Source: Malacoraja senta (taxonomy: Eukaryota). Taken from it: DNA of 64,000 bases. Of this stretch, positions 14,007 through 62,263 are shown one piece after another; the stretch's first letter is position 1; each line of letters begins with the position of its first letter. A program made the position numbers and the translations under genes. Where the stretch lies: the NCBI GenBank assembly GCA_038087875.1, contig CM075988.1, positions 14,448,001 through 14,512,000 on the forward strand, given 5' to 3'. The notes under the pieces are model-generated. The model was not told where the DNA came from, searched no databases, and saw nothing but the letters and a program-made list of their open reading frames with translations.

Positions 14007-15512
14007 ACATAGAAACATAGAAACAAAGAAACATAGAAAATAGGTGCAGGAGCAGGCCATTCTGCCCTTCGAGCCTGTACCGCCATTTGATATGATCATG
14101 GCTGATCATCCAACTCAGTATCCCATCCCTGCCTTCTCTCCATACCCCCTGATCCCTTTAGCCACAAGGGCCACATCTAACTCCCTCTTAAATATAGCCA
14201 ATGAGCTGGCCTCAACTACCTTCTGTGGCAGAGAATTCCACAGATTCACCACTCTCTGTGTAAAAAATGATTTCCTCATCTCGGTCCTAAAAGTCTTCCC
14301 TCTTATCCTTAAACTGTGACCCCTAGTTCTGGACTTCCCCATCATCGGGAATAATCTTCCTGCATCTAGCCTCTCCAACCCCTTAAGAATTTTGTAAGTT
14401 TCTATAAGATCCCCCCTCAGTCTTCTGAATTCCAACATGTACAAGCCGAGTCTATCCAGTCTTTCCTCATATGAAAGTCCTGCCATCCCAGGAATCAGTC
14501 TGGTGAACCTTCTCTGTACTCCCTCTATGGCAAGAATGTCTTTCCTCAGATTAGGAGACCAAAACTGTACGCAATACTCCAGGTGTGGTCTCACCAAGAC
14601 CTTGTACAACTGCAGTAGAACCTTCCTGCTCTTATACTCAAATCCTTTTGCTATGAATGCTAACATACCATTTGCTTTCTTCACTGCCTGCTGCACCTGC
14701 ATTCCTACTTTCAATGACTGGTGTACCATGACACCCAGGTCTCATTGCATCTCCCCTTTTCCTAATCGGCCACCATTCAGATAATAGTCTACTTTCCTGT
14801 TTTTGCCACCAAAGTGGATAACCTCACATTTATCCACATTATACTGCATCTGCCATGCCTTTGCCCACTCACCCAACCTATCCAAGTCACCTTGCAGCCT
14901 CCTAGCATCCTCCTCACAGCTAACACTGCCCCCCAGCTTCGTGTCATCCGCAAACTTGGAGATGTTGCATTCAATTCCCTCATCCAGATCATTAATATGT
15001 ATTGTAAATAGCTGGGGTCCCAGCACTGAGCCTTGCGGTACCCCACTAGTCACTGCCTGCCATTGTGAAAAGGACCTGTTTACTACTACTCTTTGCTTCC
15101 TGTCTGCCAGCCAGTCCTCTATCCACATCAATACTGAACCCCCAATACCATGTGCTTTATGTTTGTATGCTAATCTCTTATGTGGGACCTTGTCGAAAGC
15201 CTTCTGAAAGTCCAGATATAACACATCCACTGGTTCTCCCTTATCCACTCTACTAGTTACATCCTCGAAAAATTCTATAAGATTCGTCAGACATGATTTA
15301 CCTTTCATAAATCCATGCTGACTTTGTCCAATGAACTCACCACTTTCCAAATGTGCTGCTTTCCCATCTTTAATAACTGACTCCAGAATTTTCCCCACCA
15401 CCCATGTTAGACTAACTGGTCTGTAATTCCCCGTTTTGTCTCTCCTTCCCTTTTTTAAAAGTGGAGTTACATTAGCTACCCTCCAGTCCTCAGGAACTAC
15501 TCCAGAATCTAA
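14007..15512 (-). mobile_element. CR1/HER1-type LINE, 5'-truncated, young; RT frame broken by a single stop
   Basis: ORFs 14742-15533 and 14115-14729 are in frame: NYRPVSLT, QHGF, YLDFQKAFDKVPH, GVPQGSVLGP, FADDTKL, HLEYCVQFWSP, LWNSLP. 3' tail is a (TTTCTATG)n repeat at ~14007-14040. Confidence 0.95.
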
Positions 15513-15584
15513 AGGAACAAGGCACATCCCCATCTGCAGGACATCAATTGCTCCTTCACCTGAGATGGTCTACATTATACTGCA

Positions 15585-32774: not shown

Positions 32775-32962
32775 ACCCGGCGTGGGGGGACCGCTATGAG
32801 GGCGGCGGATGGGGAGGGAGGAGGAGGAGGGGAACAAAGGGGAACCTGGCACAGGGGTATTTTGTCAGTGCCCTCTAGGTGGCGACTATTTGCATACCTT
32901 GGGTATGCAAGCAAAGAATTGCTTGACTTGTCACATGTGACAATAAAGTATTCATTCATTCA
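32775..32962 (+). mobile_element. 3' end of a non-autonomous retroelement / LINE tail
   Basis: tgcataccttgggtatgcaagcaaagaatt...tcacatgtgacaataaagta(TTCA)n. Confidence 0.7.
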
Positions 32963-33359
32963 AATACTCACATAGTTGATGGGATCTAAACCTGCAGTAG
33001 GCAGTAGACTTCCAGCCTGAATGCCCATCAATACATTCAAATGGGTCATTTATTCATCCCCATGGGCAAATCTAATGGTTTAAAGCACATTTTCCAAAGG
33101 GACCAAACTCAGACATAAAGGCAAAACGTTGATTCCATCAAAAAAAATGCTTCCTTTATTATTGCCAAAGGAAAATTAAAACTGCTTGGCTGTTCAGTAA
33201 AAATATTTCTGTCAGTAAGCAGAGGATGAAAAGGCATGAGTCTTCTCACACGTTGCCACATTTCTTTTTAGAATTGTTTTGGAGTTCTGCCTGAAAGCTC
33301 AAAACAAAATGGTCCCCTGGACCCCTTCCATTGAAACTGGGCTTTGTCAGGCAGCCAGC
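32925..33359 (+). repeat. Segment A, copy 1 (duplicated at 37074-37506)
   Basis: 435 vs 433 bp; 3 substitutions and 2 single-base indels seen. Confidence 0.95.
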
Positions 33360-33559
33360 GAGAAGAACAATTCCATAACTGTGATTGAAGCTGCTAAATT
33401 ACATGGTACAAGTATCTCAGTTATGCTGACAATAGCAAAATAAAAAGTAAATCCCAAAGTAGATGGATGCTTTATCCTTCTCTGCATCATGCATGATGTG
33501 CCAATGTTTAAAAAGGTGGAATGGAATGGTGAGACACAGGGCGGCTTAATCACTACTTC

Positions 33560-33800
33560 TCTAAAAGGAGTTGCGCATTGTCGTCAAATGATTCTGACCA
33601 AACAAACCTCCCCAACATTTACACATTGTTGAAAGGTTCACAGATCAGATGGGGAGGACATGTTAGAAGAATGTCTGATGACAGAATACCAAAGCAGCTG
33701 CTCGACAGAGCTGATCAAGGGCAAGCTTTCAAGAGGTGGACGGAACATGAAATTCAAAGACTCTCTTGGAACATCCTTGAAGAGTTTCAACCTTGGGACA
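33560..33800 (+). mobile_element. RTE-clade LINE C-terminal relic
   Basis: QIRWGGHVRRMSDDRIPKQLL, then (frameshift) KGKLSRGGRNMKFKDSL. Confidence 0.8.
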
Positions 33801-33993
33801 CATACCACTGAAAACAACAAGCATTGGTTCATCCTATTGGGTATGCCTGCATAAAACATGTTGCTCACTTACAGCTCATTAATAGTGATATTTCAAGAAT
33901 CACTAGAGTCAGGTTTCCAGACAATCGGATAATTGCCAATATTACCCCTCTGTCCTCCACCAGGGGCGCCGTGGAGATGGCCAGCCCTGCCGG

Positions 33994-34213
33994 CCATTAG
34001 CTTTCTCCATTAGCTTTCTTCACTGCCTGCTGTACCTGCACGCCAACTTTCAGTGACTGGTGTACAAGGACACCCAGGTCTCGCTGCACCTCCCCCTTAC
34101 CTAACCTAACCCCATTGAGATAATAATCTGCCCCCTTGTTTTTGCCGCCAAAGTGGATAACCTCACATTTATCTATATTATACTGCAAGTGGATAACCTC
34201 ACATTTATCGATA
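33994..34213 (-). mobile_element. Internal CR1 RT fragment without tail
   Basis: MQYNIDKCEVIHFGGKN...QRDLGVLVHQSLKVGVQVQQAVKKANG. Confidence 0.9.
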
Positions 34214-36766
34214 TATCATCTAACATCATTCAAACAGATCATTAGGTCATTATCAATCCCAGGTACCAAGGATTGCAATTCACAAAACCACATGCTTCCA
34301 AACATACAAGTGTGATAAAAGTGACAATAAATTCAAAACTCTTTTGTAATAACATTTTTTGTAACATCCTGTAATTATGAAGTGCTCTATAAATGAAATT
34401 GTTTCTTCTTCCAAAGTTAAAAATTGATCACAGTGGCTATAAACTCTTCCAGCGTGATCACGTGACACCACGGTCCTTCAGCCAGGCTGATTTCCATACC
34501 ACCAGAAGTTGTATGTCTGTCACTATCAACTTTAGAGATACAGTGCGGAAACAGGCCCTTCAGCCCATGCCGACAAGTGATCATCCCGTACACAAACACA
34601 AATCTACGCACCAGGGACAATTTACAATTGTCACAAAGCCAATTAACCTCCAAACCAGAACGTCTTTAGAGTATGGGAGGAGCACCTAGAGAAAACCCAC
34701 ACGGTCACAGGGAAAATGACAAACTCCGTACAGACACCAAATTCAGTGGATATTTTTAAGGCGGAGATAGACAAATTCTTGATTAGAACGGGTGTCAAGG
34801 TTTATGGAGAGAAGACAGGAAAATGGGATTAGGATGCAGAGATCAGCCTTGATTGAATGGTGGAGTAGACTCAATGGGCCAAAAGGCCTCATTCTAATCC
34901 TCCAACTGTGCCACTTAAAGAACTCTGAGATCAAACTTGATCCTTGGTTTTGTACTTCGTAAATTTTCCAGTATTTTATCTTCCAAACAGTGACATAAAA
35001 GTGAGCAGATGCTGGAGCCTTGCGTAAAAAATCTGGTGGAGAAACTTAGCGATTTAGGTAGGTTCAGACCCGAAACGTCGTCTGTTCATTTCCTTCCACA
35101 GATGCTGCCTGACCATCTGAGTTCCTCCAGTAGTTTGTTTTTTTGCATTCTAAAGTTGCGTCTCAATGATGATATTCTTTTATCCAATTGCATTTTTATT
35201 GCACCTTTCACATTCCTTTCAGATTGTGGCAAAGTGTTTTCTAGGCAAGAAGGAACACTGGATGTGTAGTTTCTGCCATACCATTGGAAGCAGTTTAAAT
35301 AGCAACCTCTCATGAACAGGATTGTGGCAATCTGTTGTGGTAAAGATTTAGTAAGATTCTTTGATGGATAAATATTGGTGATGACAGCAATATACCAGCT
35401 GTAACAAAGAACCAAAGGCTCAAAGGACCATGCAAAGAGCAGAAACAAGGAACTAAAGATGCTAGTTTACACAAAAGGACACAAAGAGCTGGAGTCGGTC
35501 AGTGGGTCAGGCAGCATCTGCTTGCTAACCTAAAGTGATGGGGAGAGGGGAGGAGAGAGGAGAAAGAGTGGTATTGGCACTGAGAGTAGAGCCTTCTCTC
35601 CACCCAAAAACAAAACTATGCATTCAGCTATCCTACATTTTGAGTGTGAGTTATCTGGTGACTTGCCAATTTTATAATTCTGGGATAAAGGAATATTCAA
35701 AAGCACTTTTTCTTTACTAATAGGCAACATTTTTCCAATAAACCAAACCTGACAATATTTTGTTCTGAGACATTTAGGAATAAAAGTGTTATTCTTCAGA
35801 AATGTGTGTGGATATTGTGCCCACTGGGATCTCTCCAACAATAGCCTAATAGTCTGCCACATCAATTGCTTGCCTCAAATTGGTGCGTCTTTCAATTCTA
35901 AGCCAGCCCATTAGATGGAGCACCGTACTGAACTATTCCAATACAAAAAGAGGGGAGAAGAATACTCCATTTGTTTTTGTCGGGTATGGTGCAGCTAGCC
36001 AAAAGAGGAAGAACTATAGTCTGAACCTTCAAAATTGCTATCTGATCAAGCCCAAATATGTCCGAGAAAGCTGTGGTGTTGAAATATTTTAAATATCTTA
36101 ATGCTTCAAATAAGTGGCTTTCACCTGGTATTTCCAAACATTTTCTCTTACTCTGCACGATGCTATGATCTGATACAATGCAATACTTTCACCTTAAGTT
36201 GGATCAAACTTGCAAACTTACCATTCATTTTCAAATATAGTGATTTGACTCAGTGCATGTAATCTTTGACCAGGAAATCCAAGGTCATCAGCTTCTGGTC
36301 TCATTTGATTCTTCATTTCATCTCTTCAGCACTCTACAAGTAACATCTTTTCCCTTGGCAATTTCTTGCTTCCAGTTGCCCCCACGCTGATCTGTTTATG
36401 TTCCTTTTATTTTTTCGCTTCACCGTATCTATCATGCATACACAATTTTTTTTAAAGTCTTCTGCTCCCTATAAATCTGCCGATCAAATGATCACATTTT
36501 GTATTATCCCAGCTTCTGTTCCCTTCCTGCGTCCTTCTGGCAAGCCCAGATGTAAAGTTTAATGAAGTCCCAAAATATCTGCTCTCATTTTGCTACTCAG
36601 TGAAACCATGCCAGATCAGACCAATAACAAGCAACAGCTCCTGAACAGGAATTTTTTAAGTCAGAGTCCTTTCGTAAGGAGACAGGCTCTTTAGTCCACG
36701 AAGTCTACATCAACCATCAAGCACCTATTGACACTAATCCATTTTATTCTCTCCCTTTGTTCTCAT

Positions 36767-37802
36767 CAGCTCCCCTCAGATTCAACAGCCCTACCTCACT
36801 TATTTGGATCCATACTACCTTTGTCCATCAACCACACACTTCCCCCACTGCGTCCTCTCGCCTCATTCTTCCCATCTTCCCACCCTAGCTTCCTTATTTG
36901 GTTCCATGTTTCATTTTCCTTTCCAAATAGATTCTATCATCTGCAGGCCATTGTTGATTCCACCTGTTGCCACCCAGTCTCTGTCAATATTTCCACCCTA
37001 CTAACTCCCACCTGACTCTACCTTCTGATGAACCCTTCTTCATCCAAATCCACATCATCTGCCAACATCTGCCGACTTGTCACATGTGACAATAAAGTAT
37101 TCATTCATTCAAATACTCACATAGTTGATGGGATCTAAACCTGCAGTAAGCAGTAGACTTCCAGCCTGAATGCCCATCAATACATTCAAATGGGTCATTT
37201 ATTCATCCCCATGGGCAAATATAATGGTTTAAAGCACATTTTCCAAAGGGACCAAACTCAGACATAAAGGCAAAACGTTGATTCCATCAAAAAAAATGCC
37301 TCCTTTATTATTGCCAAAGGAAAATTAAAACTGCTTGGCTGTTCAGTAAAAATATTTCTGTCAGTAAGCAGAGGATGAAAAGGCATGAGTCTTCTCACAC
37401 GTTGCCACATTTCTTTTAGAATTGTTTTGGAGTTCTGCCTGAAAGCTCAAACAAAATGGTCCCCTGGACCCCTTCCATTGAAACTGGGCTTTGTCAGGCA
37501 GCCAGCTCCCCTCAGATTCAACAGCCCTACCTCACTTATTTGGATCCATACTACCTTTGTCCATCAACCACACACTTCCCCCACTGCGTCCTCTCGCCTC
37601 ATTCTTCCCATCTTCCCACCCTAGCTTCCTTATTTGGTTCCATGTTTCATTTTCCTTTCCAAATAGATTCTATCATCTGCAGGCCATTGTTGATTCCACC
37701 TGTTGCCACCCAGTCTCTGTCAATATTTCCACCCTACTAACTCCCACCTGACTCTACCTTCTGATGAACCCTTCTTCATCCAAATCCACATCATCTGCCA
37801 AC
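36767..37802 (+). repeat. B-A-B block: 300-bp direct repeat (36767-37066 / 37503-37802) enclosing A copy 2
   Basis: The B copies look identical by eye and give identical ORF translations; CAGC overlap at 37503-37506. Confidence 0.95.
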
Positions 37803-38599
37803 TCCTGCCCTGCCCCTCTTCACCCCTCCCCCCCATCATCTCTTCATCCCCCCCGCCCCCCTTCAACCAGAAACTTTGATCGTCAAATTTCCTCCACGAT
37901 GCTGCCTGACCCACTGAGTTAAGCCAGCAGATTATTTATTACTCATCTATAGACCAGGGAAATTTTACAGTGGCCAATTAACCCATCTTTGGGATGTGGG
38001 AAACAACTGGAGCACCCAGAGGAAACTCGCGTGTTCACAGGGAGAATGCACAAACTCTACAATGTAACACTAGTTGTGACACTGTGCTGCCTGAAATATA
38101 TTATGTTAAACAACAAAATCACACATCTGGAAAATTATGGCCTAATAAAGATCATGAGAAACATACAAATCACAGAGACCGAAGCTTAGACAAGCTTCCA
38201 AGGGCTGTGAAAACCCTTGTGTAACAAACATCTATTGGAACCAAGCGGAGGATCACGCCACCACAACAGCAACAACATGCCCTTCGGTTAAAGTATTGTC
38301 CTAGCTGAATGAAGCATCATTGGTGCACTCCAGTTGCTAAAACAGTTGGCTGACAACATGCTTCAGAGGGGAACCAAGAGCTTTTGTTATCAGCAGAGTG
38401 CAACAGGATTCAATGAGACTTCAAGTGAATTGCAGGTCAATTTTAGTTAATGAAAAATCACTTCAATGCAGCGTGTATTGAAGTCTCCCAATCATGTCTC
38501 TTAACATTAAGTGCAGGAAATATAAAAATTGAGATGTTATTTCGGGCATGCAATTATCAAAAGAACTTTTCTATATATGTGTAAGTGCAAGGTGATACA

Positions 38600-40650: not shown

Positions 40651-41423
40651 GATGGACCTTACTGACAAAAAAGTTATATTTGTCAAACCATGATCAATCC
40701 AGCAAGATTGATCCAGCAAGTCAAATGCAGGCAAGTGTCTTTAGTCAGAGGGTTGTGAATCTGTGGAATTCATTCCCACAGATGGGTGTGAAGGACAAGA
40801 CAGCGTTTTTTTAAGGTAGAGATAGATTTTTGATTAGTAAGGGTGTCAGAAGCTATGGACAGAAGGCAGGAGAATGGGGTTGAGAGGGAAAGATAGATCA
40901 GCCATGATTGAATGGCGGAGTAGACTTGATGGGCTGAATGGCCTAATACTGCTCCTATGACATGAACTTATGACTTGTGAAGAGCCAAATCAAAAGACAC
41001 AAGCCCCATGTCTGCTTTGCTTTTTCATTTACTTCCACAGCATCAGTCCATCCTTTCACAACTGGTCACAGCTATTCACAGGTCAGTGGAGAGAACTTCA
41101 CTGCAGTGCCTTTCTCTTGCACTTATATCGTCAAAAGGAGCAGGTGCTAACTTCTGTCATTAAAATATGTCAAGGTAGCGAACATCACATGCAAGAGACA
41201 TCCAAGTGCTCCAAATTCACACTCATGCTAGTTGGCAGAATCAACACATTACTGTTGCCATCTGCAAACCAAGAGACATGTTACAAAGGAGGGATGAACT
41301 CACTGTTAATGCAATTGTTGAAAGTAGCGTCTGGAAGACGTAGACAATTAAGATATTGGACTTGTTTCACAACATATAGAGTAGGACAGACAAACTCTCA
41401 TTCTTCAAACCTCTTAGTCAGGA

Positions 41424-42190
41424 AACAGAAAACAAGAGTAGGCCATTCAGCCTTCAAACTTTACACGTTAGAGATACAGTGTCCCTTCAGCCCACTGAGT
41501 CCACGCCGACTAGCAATCATCCTGTATACTAGCACTAGCCTACACACTAGGGACATTTTACAAAAGCCAATTAACGTACAAATTTGTACGTCTTTGGAAT
41601 GTGAGAGGAAAGCGGAGCACCCGCAGAAAAACCTCGTAGTCACAGGGAGAACGTACCAACTCCAAATAGACAACACTCGTAGTCAGGATGAAACTGGATC
41701 TCTGGCACTGTATCGCCCTTCAAGCCTGAGTAAAATAATATTTTACTCCTTGATGCCTTGTGTCCAGAAATCCATCTACTTATTAAATATAATCTGTGAT
41801 TTGAACGTCTAACACTGTGCTAGAAAATGTCACAGGCTCGCCACCCGTGAAACATTTCCCTTCATCTCAGTCCTATGTTTCTTTCACCATGTCCTGAAAC
41901 CGACTCCTCATCCTAGATGGCACAGAGAGGGACGACAGCCTCCTCACATTCAGCCTGCCCATCTCTGTCAGAGATTTCCAAGTTTCTACCGGGTCCCCAA
42001 CTCATCCTTTAAACTCCATTGATTAGAAACCTGGTCAAACTAATCTCTCCTGTGATACCAGGAATCAGTCTGCCAAACCTTTGTGGCACTCTCTCTAATG
42101 CAAGTATATCCTTTTTTAGATTAGGGGACAAAAGCCACTACAATCCTCTGGGATGGTCTCACCAAAGAGCCATTTAATTGCAGCAAAATA
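41424..42190 (-). mobile_element. Degenerate CR1 3' end with an inserted HE1-type SINE (~41466-41712)
   Basis: Tail/3' UTR ggaaacagaaaacaagagtaggccattcagcc; RT-like ccaggaatcagtctgccaaacct...ggtctcacc. Confidence 0.7.
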
Positions 42191-56664: not shown

Positions 56665-56968
56665 GCGGCACGGTGGTGCAGTGGTCGAGTTGCAGCCTTA
56701 CAGTGCCAGAGAACCAGGCTCGATCCTGACTACGGGTATTGTTTGTACGGAGTTAGTACGTTCTCTCAGTGACCACTTGGGTATTCCCCTGGTGCTCCAG
56801 TTTCCTCCCATACTTCAAAAGACATACAGGTTTGTAGCTAATTGACTTTGGTAAAAACTTGTAAATTGTCCCTAGTGTGTAGGAGAGTGTTAATGTATGG
56901 GGATCACAGGTCGGTGTGGACTCAGTGGGCTGAAGCGCCTGCATCCGTGATGTATCTCAAACTAAAAA
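56665..56968 (+). mobile_element. HE1-type SINE, full length
   Basis: gcggcacggtggtgcagtggtcgagttgcagccttacagtgccagagaaccaggctcgatcc...tgtatctcaaactaaa. Confidence 0.9.
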
Positions 56969-57350
56969 CCAAACGAGCAGCCCCACTAACTTGTTGACTG
57001 ACAGTATTGATAAGACAGACATTACTCCCTTCTAATTTTTAACTACCCTTTAGAACAGTAATGGACTGCAAAATCAGGGACGATTACTCTTAAGTTGTGA
57101 TCTTCAAGTCTTTGCACAGTTGGTTTGTGATGAAATAAAGAATAGTAAGATTAAACGAGAACTTACCAGTTTGAAGTTTGATCTTTATTTTATGAGGAGT
57201 TACGTTGGTGATTACGTGAAGAAGACCCGTCAGGGTGCATGCGCGTCAATCTTCAAAGCAGCGGTATAATTGAAGTAACATATTAAGATGAGAAACATGA
57301 GAACTACCATTATGACCTTTATTCTATGAGAGAGGGTTGGGCGTGGCGGG

Positions 57351-57462
57351 CACGTAATCACCAACGTAACTCCTCATGAAATAAAGATCAAACTTCAAAC
57401 TGGTAAGTTCTCGTTTAATCTTACTATTTTACTTCGGAGTCACGTGAGTGACTACGTGAAGA
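57351..57462. repeat. DIRS internal complementary region (ICR)
   Basis: 57351-57428 is the reverse complement of 57141-57218 (77/78). 57427-57462 is the reverse complement of 61418-61453 (36/36). Together they spell the circle junction. Confidence 0.95.
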
Positions 57463-57703
57463 TTTTAAAGCTCTGTGATTTTTATGCCGCAGATCAAAAT
57501 CCCGGCTTCTCACTGCATCGATTGACTGAGTATCATCAATAATGCTGTAAACATGACATTGCATATCATGCAAAAACAAAACAGTTTTATTTTTGGTCAT
57601 AAAACAACCAATAAACCCTCTTAATGTAGGGCAACAAACGAAACAGAATGAAACAGTATTGAAAAACAGACTTTAAACAATAGCAACAGCACTCAATATT
57701 GAG

Positions 57704-58689
57704 TTAGCAAACAGCCCTCCATCGGCAATCGGCCGATGGTAGTATTGCTGAAAACACAAGTTCATTTTTCCAACCTGCGGCTTTTAATATATGGTCGATG
57801 GGAACGTCCATCGCCCTGGCCGCGGATGTTGCTACTGCGCTAGTGGAATGCGATGTAAACACATAAATGTTAATTCCTGCCTGAACCAACTCTTGCTTTA
57901 ACCACCTTGAGATAGTCTGAACTGCCACTCTTTTATGTTGGTTTTTTGTAACTGACAAATAATCCTGTTTCTTCTTGTCTTAAAGCCCTTGTGGCTTCAA
58001 TGTAATGTAACAAATGTGTCCTTACACATAAACATGGAGCTGTAGGATATGCTGAGAACACAATCTTAAAACCTGTCTCACCTGGCCTGCTTTGTTTGAG
58101 CAGGTCAGAAATATAAAACAGAACATTCTCTGTATTCACTTCCATTCTCTCGAACTGAAGTTTTTTGGAAAATCTGCACTCTCTGTACTGACACCAATGC
58201 CATTAGCATAGCCAATTTCATGGTTAATTTTAACAAAGTTATAGCCGTGACAGGGACCCAATGACGAAGTATGTTACAAACAACACTTACCTCGCAGATT
58301 ACCATATACCTAGGCTTAGGCGGTTTGGAATTAGATTATTTTCATCAACCTAGATATGAGAGGGTGAGAACCTATACTTTGTGTCCGTGTACCTATTACA
58401 AAATATGCGGACAAACCACTTCTAGCTGTATTGATAGCAGTATAGCTAAGACCTTCATCATAATAAAGTGTAGATAACTCTAACACATTTTCAATAATTA
58501 CAGTATCATATTGAATATTCTTTTGAACACAATATTGTTCCTTTTTTTTTCTTTTTTTTTTCCCTTTTTTTTTTTTTCCCCATAAGTCATATACTGTTTT
58601 TGAGTACTCTTTCTCCAGACTGCAGCGAGTATATACACCGTTGGCCTAGAAAGTCCTCGACCAATGTAAGGCATTCTTGAAACCTGCAA
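57704..58689 (-). pseudogene. DIRS tyrosine recombinase relic (frameshifted)
   Basis: Fragments ILAAVWRKSTQKQY, LTMKLAMLMALVSVQRVQ, LLKQSRPG...LCVRTHLLHYIEATRALR...LFVSYKKP and TISRWLK...FTSHSTSAVATSAA...ILKAAGW. The HSTR motif reads HSTS, the C-terminal FQQYYHRPI is in a shifted frame, and there is a poly-T expansion near 58540-58576. Confidence 0.9.
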
Positions 58690-58800
58690 ACTAACAGATC
58701 CATACCGTCACATAACGGATGAACTTAATGCGTTACTGGATGCTCCAGCAAATTCCTACTGTTTGGAATCAGCAAAAAAAGGTTGGATCGCTATCTGTAA

Positions 58801-58980
58801 CATCAAAGGGAACCATGGTTGAATGAGGCAATTTGGTATCACCAAAACACCTGAAGCGGCATCCTGCTTGATTTTCTCAAACACCGACCTATGAGGCAGA
58901 ATGGTGGGAAAATATACACAAACATATCATCCCAATTTAGTGAAAAAGCATCAATTGCCACTGCCCCTGGATCTGGTGCC
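58801..58980 (-). pseudogene. DIRS DNA methyltransferase-like (Dam-like) domain relic
   Basis: Hand translation gives APDPGAVAIDAFSLNWDDMFVYIFPPFCLIGR, then after a frameshift KIKQDAASGVLVIPNCLIQPWFPLM. This matches the DAF..W...Y.FPP...P.W..QPWFP pattern of DIRS methyltransferase domains. Confidence 0.8.
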
Positions 58981-58999
58981 TATGAAACATATTTTGGCC

Positions 59000-60231
59000 T
59001 TCCATATAGAAGTACTATGTTCTTGAACACATCCTGGTTCCACATCCACTCTGTGTTATGATGGAATTTTCGTGAACTGCCATCTGGTACTACATTAAGT
59101 TTCCCTGGCAGATAGATAGCTCCAATCCAAATCTCTCTATCCCTACTCCAGGTCCAATTGTATTTGCCAACCTGTCACATGATAACGATTTGATTCCACC
59201 CATGTGATTCATATCAGCAACTGCTGCAGTGTTGTCTATTTTGCACTGCACATGCAAACTAGTTTAGTTAGTGCCATAAGCCTTGAGTCCATAAAATACT
59301 CTTGGTTAATTCCCCATGTATGCAGAAGCAATGTTCATCTGTCTCCACCGCTGGATCTTGTATCAGTAGCACCCTACCCAAGTGCTCTGACATCTGTCTG
59401 CAAATCATGGAAGCTTGGTCCAATAACACTTTGGAACTACTAGTGGACACATGCTGAATCCACCATTGTACATCAGCAACAGCCTCTTTTGATAGAAGCA
59501 TAGGTCTATTATAATGACCCCAATGTATCCTCAATGCTTGTTCCTTTGACCTTTGTAATTGTAGATAATAAAGTGGCCATATTGAACTGCTGGAAATGCT
59601 GCCAGCCATTACCACAGCAGTCTTGTCACCTGGCTAATTGAAGGCTGTTAGCAATTAACTTGATATAGCTCTTAATTAGCTGTACCCTTTTTTGCCTGGG
59701 CAAGGTCACAATGATGTTGATTAAGTCCATTGTGAACCCAACTAGTCAATTTATGTCACAGGTATAAATTTAGATTCCTCAGAATAGCTTATAAAGCCCA
59801 ATTAACATTGGTTTTTACCAACTGCCACTGATGCTTCAGCTGTTTCCTTTGATTGTCCTACAATCAAGATATTATTTAGCTAAACCATGAGCACATGACC
59901 TTGACTTGGCATAATTCCCCATCCAGCTGAATTTTAAATCTTGTATCCTGCAAATGAACAGACACTGAATCCGCATCTTTAAGATCTCCTTCACAAACGT
60001 TTCCATCTTAAAATGTCTATACCGTACAAAAGGGTTAAACCTATTCAGGTCTGTATAATTCTGCATCCCCCCATCCTTTTTTGGTCTGGGAAAGATAGTG
60101 GACACAAACTGATGGGTTTGGTAAACTGCCTTAGCAATTACACCTTTATTACATAAGCTTGCAAGTTCCAGCTGAACTTCCAATTGTTCAGTGATACTGA
60201 AGTCAAACTCCTTTTTTGGAACATGTTGCAT
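59000..60231 (-). pseudogene. DIRS reverse transcriptase / RNase H relic
   Basis: FVSTIFPRPKKDGG...DLNRFNPFVRYRHFKMET; DLKDA in a shifted frame; YxDD reads stop-LNN at 59871-59882; RNase H end WIGAIYLPGKLNVVPDGSSRKF...EW. Confidence 0.9.
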
Positions 60232-60249
60232 GGGTAAATCAGAATTTGC

Positions 60250-61270
60250 ATTTAAGCTTTATTCGATGCCCTTGAATAACCTTCAGTATAAACATATCTG
60301 AGGTAAACATTTAATTGTATCACATTAGATCTGTCTACATGAGAACCAGACCCTCTTACCTCCTTACCACCTGGCATTCTTCCCCGGCCTTGAGCTGGAT
60401 ATCTCACCTCCGTGGCGGTGCTACAGCCGAACGCCAACTGCGCTGCATCGTAGCTGGACTCGTCCCTTGCCCGGACCAGTCTACTCCCTTATAGGGATAC
60501 TTCCGCTTTGGTGAATATGTGGCTGCCGTCTTAGCCTCCTCCTCCAGCTCCTTCACCTGCTGTGCGAAATCCTCGCCAAACAGCTGTGCCAGTTGCACTG
60601 TGCCAGGCTGGCATTTATGCTGGTGGCAAGTTCCTCACCCAGAGGCTCACCAGCATCCGACGACATGGCAAATCGTGCTACACACGGTGTCAGCTCTAAC
60701 AGCTGCCTGCCCTCCCTTTGGAAGTCGTCGGACTCAGGGTCAGAGCGTATCTGCCCTTCTGCACTCACCTCTTGCAAAGAGGGTGCTTTCAAGCAGGCCT
60801 CTACTAGGCACTGCCAGCGGAGCCGTCCCCACGGCCTCCCGCCTGCACAACTCCTCCTGGAGTTGTGGCTTTATGAGGCAGACCTCTCCTAGGCACTGCC
60901 AGTGGAGCCTTCTCTGTGGCTTCCCACCTGCACTACTCCTCCTGGAGCGTCTCTGTGGAGCAGCCCCTGTATGAGCTGCTCCTTTTGGATAACCGCTGGG
61001 GAACGGTATCCTGTCCCCGACGGGACTCTCGTGGCCCGACTCTGCGGAGTCTATAGCCGTTAACTTATGCCGACCGCCCGACTGGCGTTGGCTGTGTACC
61101 CGGCTGGGCACTTTCCGAAGTCTGTCGCCGCACCGCTACCGGCTTGCGACTCCCCCGAGGTGACAGGCTGCCTTTCAGAGACTGCGTCCCGCAGCTCTCT
61201 CTCTCCTTGTCGGCAGCAGCCTGCACCTTTCCCTTGTTCCTGCATATGGGGGCAAAAACAGACAGAAACA
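60250..61270 (-). pseudogene. DIRS gag-like ORF1 relic
   Basis: Position upstream of RT inside the element; LFGEDFAQQVKELEEEAK resembles the LFG motif of DIRS ORF1; multiple frameshifts. Confidence 0.55.
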
Positions 61271-62263
61271 ATTTCTATACTTTCTTATAACTCCTCCAAA
61301 GTCTCCCCGACTTTGGTGGAGTTGTATTTACTCACGTTGCAGCAGGACGTCCGTGCTCCTGCTGCCGTTCGCACCAATGCGTCCGACGTAATGACGCGCA
61401 TGCGCCCTGACGGGTCTTCTTCACGTAGTCACTCACGTGACTCCGAAGTAAAATCCTCAGTTAAAGCTCCAATTCAAAAATATCAAACAACTGCTGAGCT
61501 TCACAAAAGGGAAAATTCACTTCCCTCAACCTTACAGAGCTGGTGTTCAAATACTTTATAAATGTTTAATCACGCTCCTAACGCAAAGCTTTGTAGTGTG
61601 CCCCAGTAGTGCATTTCATACTGCCTGCTAACAGAATAAGGAAACAGAACACGAGTTATTCTTAACGATAAACAAGAAAGACAAACATCAAAGCTTTACT
61701 TTGCCAGCACCAAAGATGTACACATCCTGACTAGAATTCCCACATCCATCGATTCTTATTGACCTGAAATGTGTTGCAATTTAGCACATTAAATTTTCAT
61801 TTGCAGCAAGGATTTGTGAATCCATCTCGGGGATTACCTCCATTCGACCATTTCTAACTTTTCTTATTTTATTAATACTGAACAGTTCACATGTATTCAC
61901 AGAATTTATAATCACAATTTCAGCAGAATGCCAGTCAATTTGCTGGAAGTGCATTCAGCGAAGGAGAGGTTATGGTGTTTTTAATAGCCAAGAACCCTTG
62001 GAGCAAACAAAACCACAGACAGAATTTTAAAGCATGGATGCTCTGGAGTGGGCGAGAGCATGCGAGAAACCTGGAAGTGCAATGCGTATGTCAGTGGCAT
62101 TTTAACTCGGAGCCTCCATTATTATTTAAACTTCTCCTTTCCGGTCCAATTGGTGCCAGCGGGGATGATGATAACACACCCGCCATGAATTCTTCTAATA
62201 CCAAAATAAAATGTCTAGACGCAAAAGCTGCCTTGGAACCATGGCCATTTGCTCTGGAGTGGA

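Follow-up and report, generated by a model that had tools for sequence, protein, structure and literature searches.

A full-length DIRS1-like retrotransposon with broken genes, probably a young member of a family mobilized in trans

The element and its ends

We analyzed a stretch of 64,000 nucleotides from Malacoraja senta (contig CM075988.1 of assembly GCA_038087875.1, positions 14,448,001 to 14,512,000), referred to below as the window, which carries a DIRS1-like retrotransposon on its minus strand. The element has the full DIRS1 end layout, its pol and tyrosine recombinase genes appear to have been broken before it inserted, and the insertion itself is young. We consider it very probable that this young copy belongs to a high-copy, non-autonomous DIRS1-like family that is mobilized in trans. 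For comparison, we used public contigs from four of the 24 listed runs, X1, X3, X6, and X9, which correspond to organisms A, B, C, and D, over the region 56970-62200 at 80% likeness. The element and its terminal features, including the inverted terminal repeats (ITRs) as well as the internal complementary regions (ICRs), are as follows.

57141-61454, minus strand: whole DIRS1-like element, 4,314 bp, with ATT at its start and end; boundaries set by the empty site (X9 record 25)
61392-61454, minus strand: left terminus, with the divergent ITR part at 61454-61428 and the conserved ITR part at 61427-61392; 37/37 to the left ICR and 35/36 to the right ITR core
57141-57248, minus strand: right terminus, with the conserved ITR at 57248-57213, the divergent ITR at 57212-57187, and a right extension of 46 nt at 57186-57141
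57426-57462, minus strand: left ICR, 37 nt
57351-57428, minus strand: right ICR, 78 nt, sharing the 3-bp circular junction AAT (57426-57428) with the left ICR, where the two overlap
61452-61454, plus strand: target trinucleotide AAT, found singly in the empty site, whereas the filled site has it at either end (the other at 57141-57143)

An earlier note on this DNA, made from the sequence alone, had reported that the ends differ at 2 of 150 compared positions. All three of its pairings were reproduced exactly, with 77/78 between 57141-57218 and 57351-57428, 36/36 between 61418-61453 and 57427-57462 (37/37 including the outer base), and 35/36 between 57213-57248 and 61392-61427. The mismatch count stood, though the 150 positions are not fully independent, as the few bases at 57213-57218 and 61418-61427 are reused across the three pairings. 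Both the divergent and the conserved parts of the inverted termini are present (63 columns at 87%, with the core at 35/36). Near the 3′ end, the two ICRs are complementary to the two termini and overlap in the 3-bp AAT, and the same trinucleotide, ATT, stands at both ends of the element and as a single copy in the empty target. We found no second copy of the element within the window, and Rfam gave no matches there.

Gene remnants and age of the insertion

Between the termini, we observed the following features, in which RT denotes reverse transcriptase.

60310-61390, minus strand: 5′ leader and gag-position region, with weak resemblance to a gag end near 60583-60491 (tblastn E 0.23)
60793-60947, no strand assigned: internal duplication with an 85-bp period, units 84% alike; some X1 and X3 contigs skip 90-91 bases of it
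58590-60307, minus strand: pol remnant (RT, RNase H position, methyltransferase), with 13 strict frameshifts and 8 stops in a frameshift-aware profile alignment
59871-59882, minus strand: YxDD position, reading stop-L-N-N
57682-58662, minus strand: tyrosine recombinase remnant, with 5 strict frameshifts and without a long overlap with pol, from a profile of 12 homologues
57839-57850, minus strand: H-x-x-R motif, reading H-S-T-S, with Ser at the position of Cre Arg292
58542-58581, no strand assigned: T-rich run that varies among family members, in the recombinase's 5′ part (joint 58521-58609)

The window was aligned to a profile of 16 homologous pol proteins (13 with lengths of 620-720 residues, plus C-terminal parts from three longer ones), allowing frameshifts at four rising penalties. 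The alignment scored 1021, against 57-76 for three shuffles, and covered profile positions 22-656 of 678, with 25, 13, 12, and 10 frameshifts at the successive penalties and 5-9 stops. The RT, RNase H, and methyltransferase parts of a DIRS1-like pol could be recognized, with RNase H placed by position and without a family match. A protein search with the RT region listed at least 150 proteins, of which 11 were scanned, all with RVT_1 and three with Dam. Pfam matched no family in any of six whole frames, and none of 57 candidates was a longer relative of the RT piece. Three large deletions were apparent, with ~13 aa lost near 59995, before DLKDA, ~27 aa near 59910, between DLKDA and YxDD, and 14 aa near 58995, in the methyltransferase. 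As previously described, the YxDD motif is lost to stop-L-N-N at 59882-59871; the segment between DLKDA and YxDD, which had been thought missing, has lost these ~27 residues but not its whole length. The element contains no open pol with YxDD. In YxDD, AAT stands at both Asp codon positions, which on the sense strand amounts to a G-to-A pattern; editing was dropped as its source because the pattern comprises two sites only.

Downstream of pol on the same strand, the recombinase remnant showed 7, 5, 5, and 5 frameshifts at the four penalties and no stop. PF00589 matched one piece of it (E 0.012), the only meaningful Pfam match among 15 pieces, and was found in 9 of the 12 homologues; in a search with a recombinase piece, 0 of 356 pattern matches were confirmed. 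The Arg of H-x-x-R is kept in all 12 homologues, and the remnant reads H-S-T-S at 57850-57839, again as first described. The motif aligns to His289 and Arg292 of Cre, whose catalytic role is established, within a weak profile match (E 0.01), and the element contains no open recombinase with H-x-x-R. Together, pol and recombinase carry 18 strict frameshifts and the three large deletions. The claim that every open reading frame is frameshifted is borne out for these two genes only, since gag could not be aligned above chance (profile score 64, against a maximum of 63 among 30 shuffles). Observed over expected CpG is 0.70 in the first kilobase of the element versus 0.40 for the window.

We then turned to the age of the insertion. 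Divergence between the ends is 1.3% (confidence interval, CI, 0.2-4.7%). If the indel-to-substitution ratio is assumed to be 0.1-0.2, this predicts 1.8-3.6 indels in 2.7 kb, against the 17-18 seen (P below 1e-6). The argument from end identity in the earlier note is consistent at this point estimate but not airtight alone, with P = 0.09-0.14 when end divergence is set to its upper 95% limit and the ratio is assumed to be 0.2. Because the end clock is not significant at this limit, outside evidence was needed.

An empty site in organism D supplied it. Here, 57140 and 61452 are directly adjacent in X9 record 25, which has a single AAT; letters 118-856 of the record lie on 62199-61452 and letters 857-1026 on 57140-56971. 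The flanks of this site differ from the window by 17 substitutions in 918 positions (1.85%, CI 1.1-2.9) and 9 gap letters, in agreement with the end divergence. X1 record 8 is identical to the window over 61430-62200, so organism A has the filled allele. Given one AAT and flanks only 1.9% different, the insertion is young, dated independently of end identity and younger than the lesions, and it was a precise insertion at an AAT/ATT trinucleotide. The empty allele is known from one contig at depth 10.

This date bears directly on the alternative that an autonomous copy inserted long ago and decayed in place, while local gene conversion preserved the likeness of its ends. Only 132 nt separate the right end from the right ICR, and the two form a long hairpin, which would suit such conversion, as would an end clock that alone falls short of significance at its upper limit. 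But the 37/37 pairing bridges 4 kb, the date given by the empty site makes no use of the ends, and the lesions are common to contigs 1.4-2.7% away, which already contradicts gene conversion; we regard it as highly improbable.

The family in public contigs and candidate helpers

In X1, summed contig depth was 119,000-623,000 across 22 body bins, against 24-30 in the right flank. The body median of 383,331 and flank value of 26.7 give a ratio of 14,384, which becomes 464 if every place was counted 31 times and 144 for the lowest bin. At least 95% likeness to the element was found in 28,487 of 36,071 X1 contigs. At these depths, organism A would hold at least hundreds of copies, and thousands are plausible. 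We also weighed passive multiplication of an old dead copy by DNA-level duplication, or a D allele produced by precise excision of an old insertion. A tyrosine recombinase might in principle reverse its reaction, and there is just the single empty allele; against this, X1 depth falls to its flank level directly outside the element, one X6 contig exits the right end into another flank, and passive duplication would not hold the end pairings at 2/150 beside a body with at least 15 frameshifts. Both versions appear very unlikely.

Next, we compared lesions with near-identical contigs. Six pieces from B (X3) differ from the element at 44 of 3,081 bases (1.4%) and seven from C (X6) at 47 of 1,721 (2.7%), the latter count leaving out X6 record 19 (11% different) as a separate relative. 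Gap counts per contig piece bound which breaks can be shared, 40 of 280 letter-difference rows and 12 of 42 gap rows were listed, and body parts without X3, X6, or X9 cover were not counted as absent. X3 record 10 covers 58674-59665, differing by 13 substitutions and interrupted by a single 4-letter gap; being nearly gapless, it shares seven strict frameshifts and the 14-aa deletion. X6 records 18, 21, 22, and 23 have no gaps across six strict frameshifts. X3 record 12, which crosses the 13-aa deletion, has 3 gap letters. Nine of the 18 strict frameshifts are shared (57938, 58779, 58877, 59158, 59306, 59337, 59405, 59575, and 59744), three are absent from B or C (57760, 59643, and 60241), four are without a sharing call (58164, 58333, 59935, and 59988), and one lies in the variable T run (58554). 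The frameshift at 59916 marks where the 27-residue deletion is joined. X3 record 12 ends there, 150 of its letters still unmatched; B thus probably holds the missing RT stretch, and this deletion is probably absent from B and not family-wide. Two of the three large deletions are shared, at 59995 (B) and 58995 (B and C). At 60613, X3 record 15 continues for another 290 letters, suggesting that the gag region has a deletion near this point that B is without. The YxDD site is spanned by none of the contig pieces listed.

The earlier note had asked whether other copies carry the same lesions, and most that could be resolved are shared with near-identical contigs (nine frameshifts shared, three absent, and one probably absent); lesions private to this copy, which the note had named as refuting, were thus not the general pattern. 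This comparison indicates that pol and recombinase were broken in the family before this copy inserted. A few lesions, namely three small indels and probably the 27-residue RT deletion and the gag-region deletion, are later and belong to this copy or a subfamily. That coding decay is older than the insertion, as had been proposed, is thus borne out by shared lesions and empty-site date alike, though one lesion then exhibited, the RT deletion, probably does not extend to the whole family. Were the contigs from B and C the orthologous copy, less than 1% substitution would have to accommodate nine frameshifts and two deletions, which is implausible; orthologue or not, the lesions would therefore predate the insertion.

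The same contigs speak to whether an intact element only seems frameshifted through errors of long-read assembly. Many of the breaks are single-base indels, but independent contigs from two other organisms cross breaks without gaps, deletions of ~39-81 bases are not base-calling errors, and the window also contains open long interspersed nuclear element (LINE)-like frames of 275 and 208 aa. We give this explanation almost no credence.

Beyond the near-identical family, relatives that track the right end and ICR as far as 57481 before diverging were seen in 73 X1 contigs and 101 X9 contigs, and body pieces 81-89% alike are present in all four runs. Relatives thus share the cis repeats while their bodies differ, as cross-mobilization would require. 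The end-sharing relatives are candidate helpers, with an autonomous partner presumed. They keep the Arg codon, and no open frame was seen among their contig pieces. The ICR junction pattern had 0 matches in metagenome contigs.

In organism D, X9 terminal-bin depth is 0.4-2.4 million against a body median of 176, the right ITR and ICR are separated by a spacer of low depth (58-1,809 at the listed places), and 195 contigs exit the element exactly at 61454 into unlike, AT-rich flanks. This organism has a very large set of elements with these termini (57145-57494 and 61345-61519) and almost no body, which may include short non-autonomous derivatives.

A separate helper family would be unnecessary if partly defective members complemented each other, or if a small intact minority supplied the proteins. 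The letter at 57839 that gives D's Arg codon occurs in ~2% of X1 depth, in none of X3 or X6, and in all 25 X9 contigs, and some frameshifts vary among copies, 48% of X1 depth being without 57751 and 22% without 60251. These X1 figures would fit complementation, but the X1 minority letters at 57769, 57773, 57839, and 59495-59505 match D's relative, whose longest body pieces are 81-83% alike, and look like a sister family rather than a member of the 98-99% family; moreover, seven pol frameshifts are common within one 1-kb contig. We consider complementation, or supply by an intact minority, within the family unlikely. Single-letter differences among contigs showed no general return to homologue residues, except at 57839 and 58635.

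Several points weigh against mobilization in trans. An intact helper was not found in protein and metagenome searches, the nearest proteins being ~25-53% identical in partial alignments. Summed contig depth is not a copy number, and the only full-length copy seen is that of the window. X3 and X6 are without right-flank cover, and their contigs could be mosaics or the orthologous copy. As judged from the listed rows, there could be a second Arg-encoding letter at 57839 and repairs of four frameshifts. Finally, a truncated DIRS-1 was reverse transcribed in trans, but its retrotransposition was not completed (PMC7192593).

We nonetheless favor mobilization in trans, and we can postulate its steps. 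The dead copy would be transcribed from its left end, and its RNA would be copied by the reverse transcriptase of a related coding DIRS element. The ends would be rebuilt from the right ITR and ICR, resetting end identity in each round, and the helper's recombinase would join the circle junction to a genomic trinucleotide, so that the body would drift as a pseudogene while the ends stay helper-compatible. Because end identity is reset in each round, the ends cannot separate continuous hitch-hiking from revival of a fossil. It is possible, though doubtful, that a DIRS copy decayed by ~10-15% was re-adopted by a sister family, had its ends reset via the ICR, and then reached thousands of copies across several related animal species, at about fifty to one over coding relatives, with the dead body of more than 4 kb kept because mobilization needs length or internal signals. 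Shared lesions and the age of the empty site thus support the original proposal of a non-coding lineage mobilized in trans, whereas the autonomous partner itself is one we infer.

Surroundings and known systems

The animal DNA of the window is rich in repeats, with LINE-like frames and numerous sequences resembling short interspersed nuclear elements (SINEs). The two open LINE-like frames mentioned above belong to a remnant at 14118-15569 on the minus strand, which we take to be CR1-like. A SINE-like repeat at 56669-56966, presumably akin to the HE1 SINE of sharks and rays, has many copies in the window and lies 175 bases from the element, and a stop-free frame of 283 aa was seen at 40961-41809 on the plus strand. 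At 32925-37809, two 99% direct-repeat pairs in the order A1 (32925-33359), B1 (36767-37073), A2 (37074-37506), B2 (37503-37809) give the split-repeat layout of Ngaro/PAT elements. This region has no frame above 126 aa and no match to DIRS proteins, and tandem duplication with an internal deletion at the CAGC overlap fits equally well.

A family spread in trans would provide natural evidence for the whole DIRS cycle in trans, integration included, where PMC7192593 shows reverse transcription, and integration only indirectly. The filled and empty site pair fits the trinucleotide recombination model. End identity dates insertion, not coding loss, and a consensus with broken open reading frames can be a recently successful family. 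Thousands of copies, together with sister families sharing only the ends, would map the minimal DIRS cis signals. For a transposon specialist this is neat rather than shocking, as non-autonomous partners exist for most element classes.

In Morgane-type non-autonomous long terminal repeat (LTR) elements, pol is decayed and the family is amplified with a pseudogene body; the element here differs in its ICR and tyrosine recombinase, in place of LTR and integrase chemistry. TOC1 of Chlamydomonas has split direct repeats and no gag-pol-recombinase body, unlike the element here with its inverted ends, ICR, and recognizable pseudogenes. Like the family here, TOC1 belongs to the tyrosine-recombinase order, is non-autonomous, and multiplies, and it is described as an active nonautonomous DIRS retrotransposon (bioRxiv 10.1101/2022.06.16.496473). 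SIRE, a truncated non-autonomous VIPER of Trypanosoma cruzi, is likewise a non-coding derivative that keeps recombinase-retrotransposon ends; at ~0.4 kb and with its mobility questioned in PMC6681497, it contrasts with the 4.3 kb and dated precise insertion observed here.

The end layout resembles that of AcaDIRS1/2 and LgDIRS1/3 from molluscs (PMC3266345, Table 3), with ATT at both ends, an AAT junction, a right extension only, and no long open reading frame overlap. Part sizes are also comparable, at 27 (divergent), 36 (conserved), 46 (extension), and 37-78 (ICR) here versus 30-36, 31-36, 48-49, and 39-45 and 86-88 in molluscs (PMC3266345). Those mollusc entries are annotated with coding domains, whereas pol and recombinase here appear broken family-wide. 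Vertebrate entries of the same table differ in their trinucleotides and in having conserved ITRs 102-146 nt long, and the short-ITR layout is nearer to mollusc than to fish, frog, and lizard entries, despite a vertebrate-looking host (PMC3266345). In Xenopus, 36 of 75 and 13 of 20 DIRS-like Repbase families have broken open reading frames or repeats (PMC9210276); some may be of the same kind, though they were treated there as degeneration, and spread after coding death was not tested.

For DIRS-1 itself, the ICR is required, the ends are rebuilt from the right repeat and ICR in the restated model, and RT acts in trans (PMC7192593). The cycle of the Dictyostelium trDIRS-1 reporter was incomplete (PMC7192593), whereas the family here appears to have completed it at least hundreds of times in nature. 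In the literature searched, no full-length DIRS1-like family that is coding-dead and was spread in trans came to light, with Repbase, Dfam, subscription journals, and supplements outside the search. Non-autonomous recombinase retrotransposons are already known from TOC1 and SIRE, and the element here is a variant of full length with a pseudogene body.

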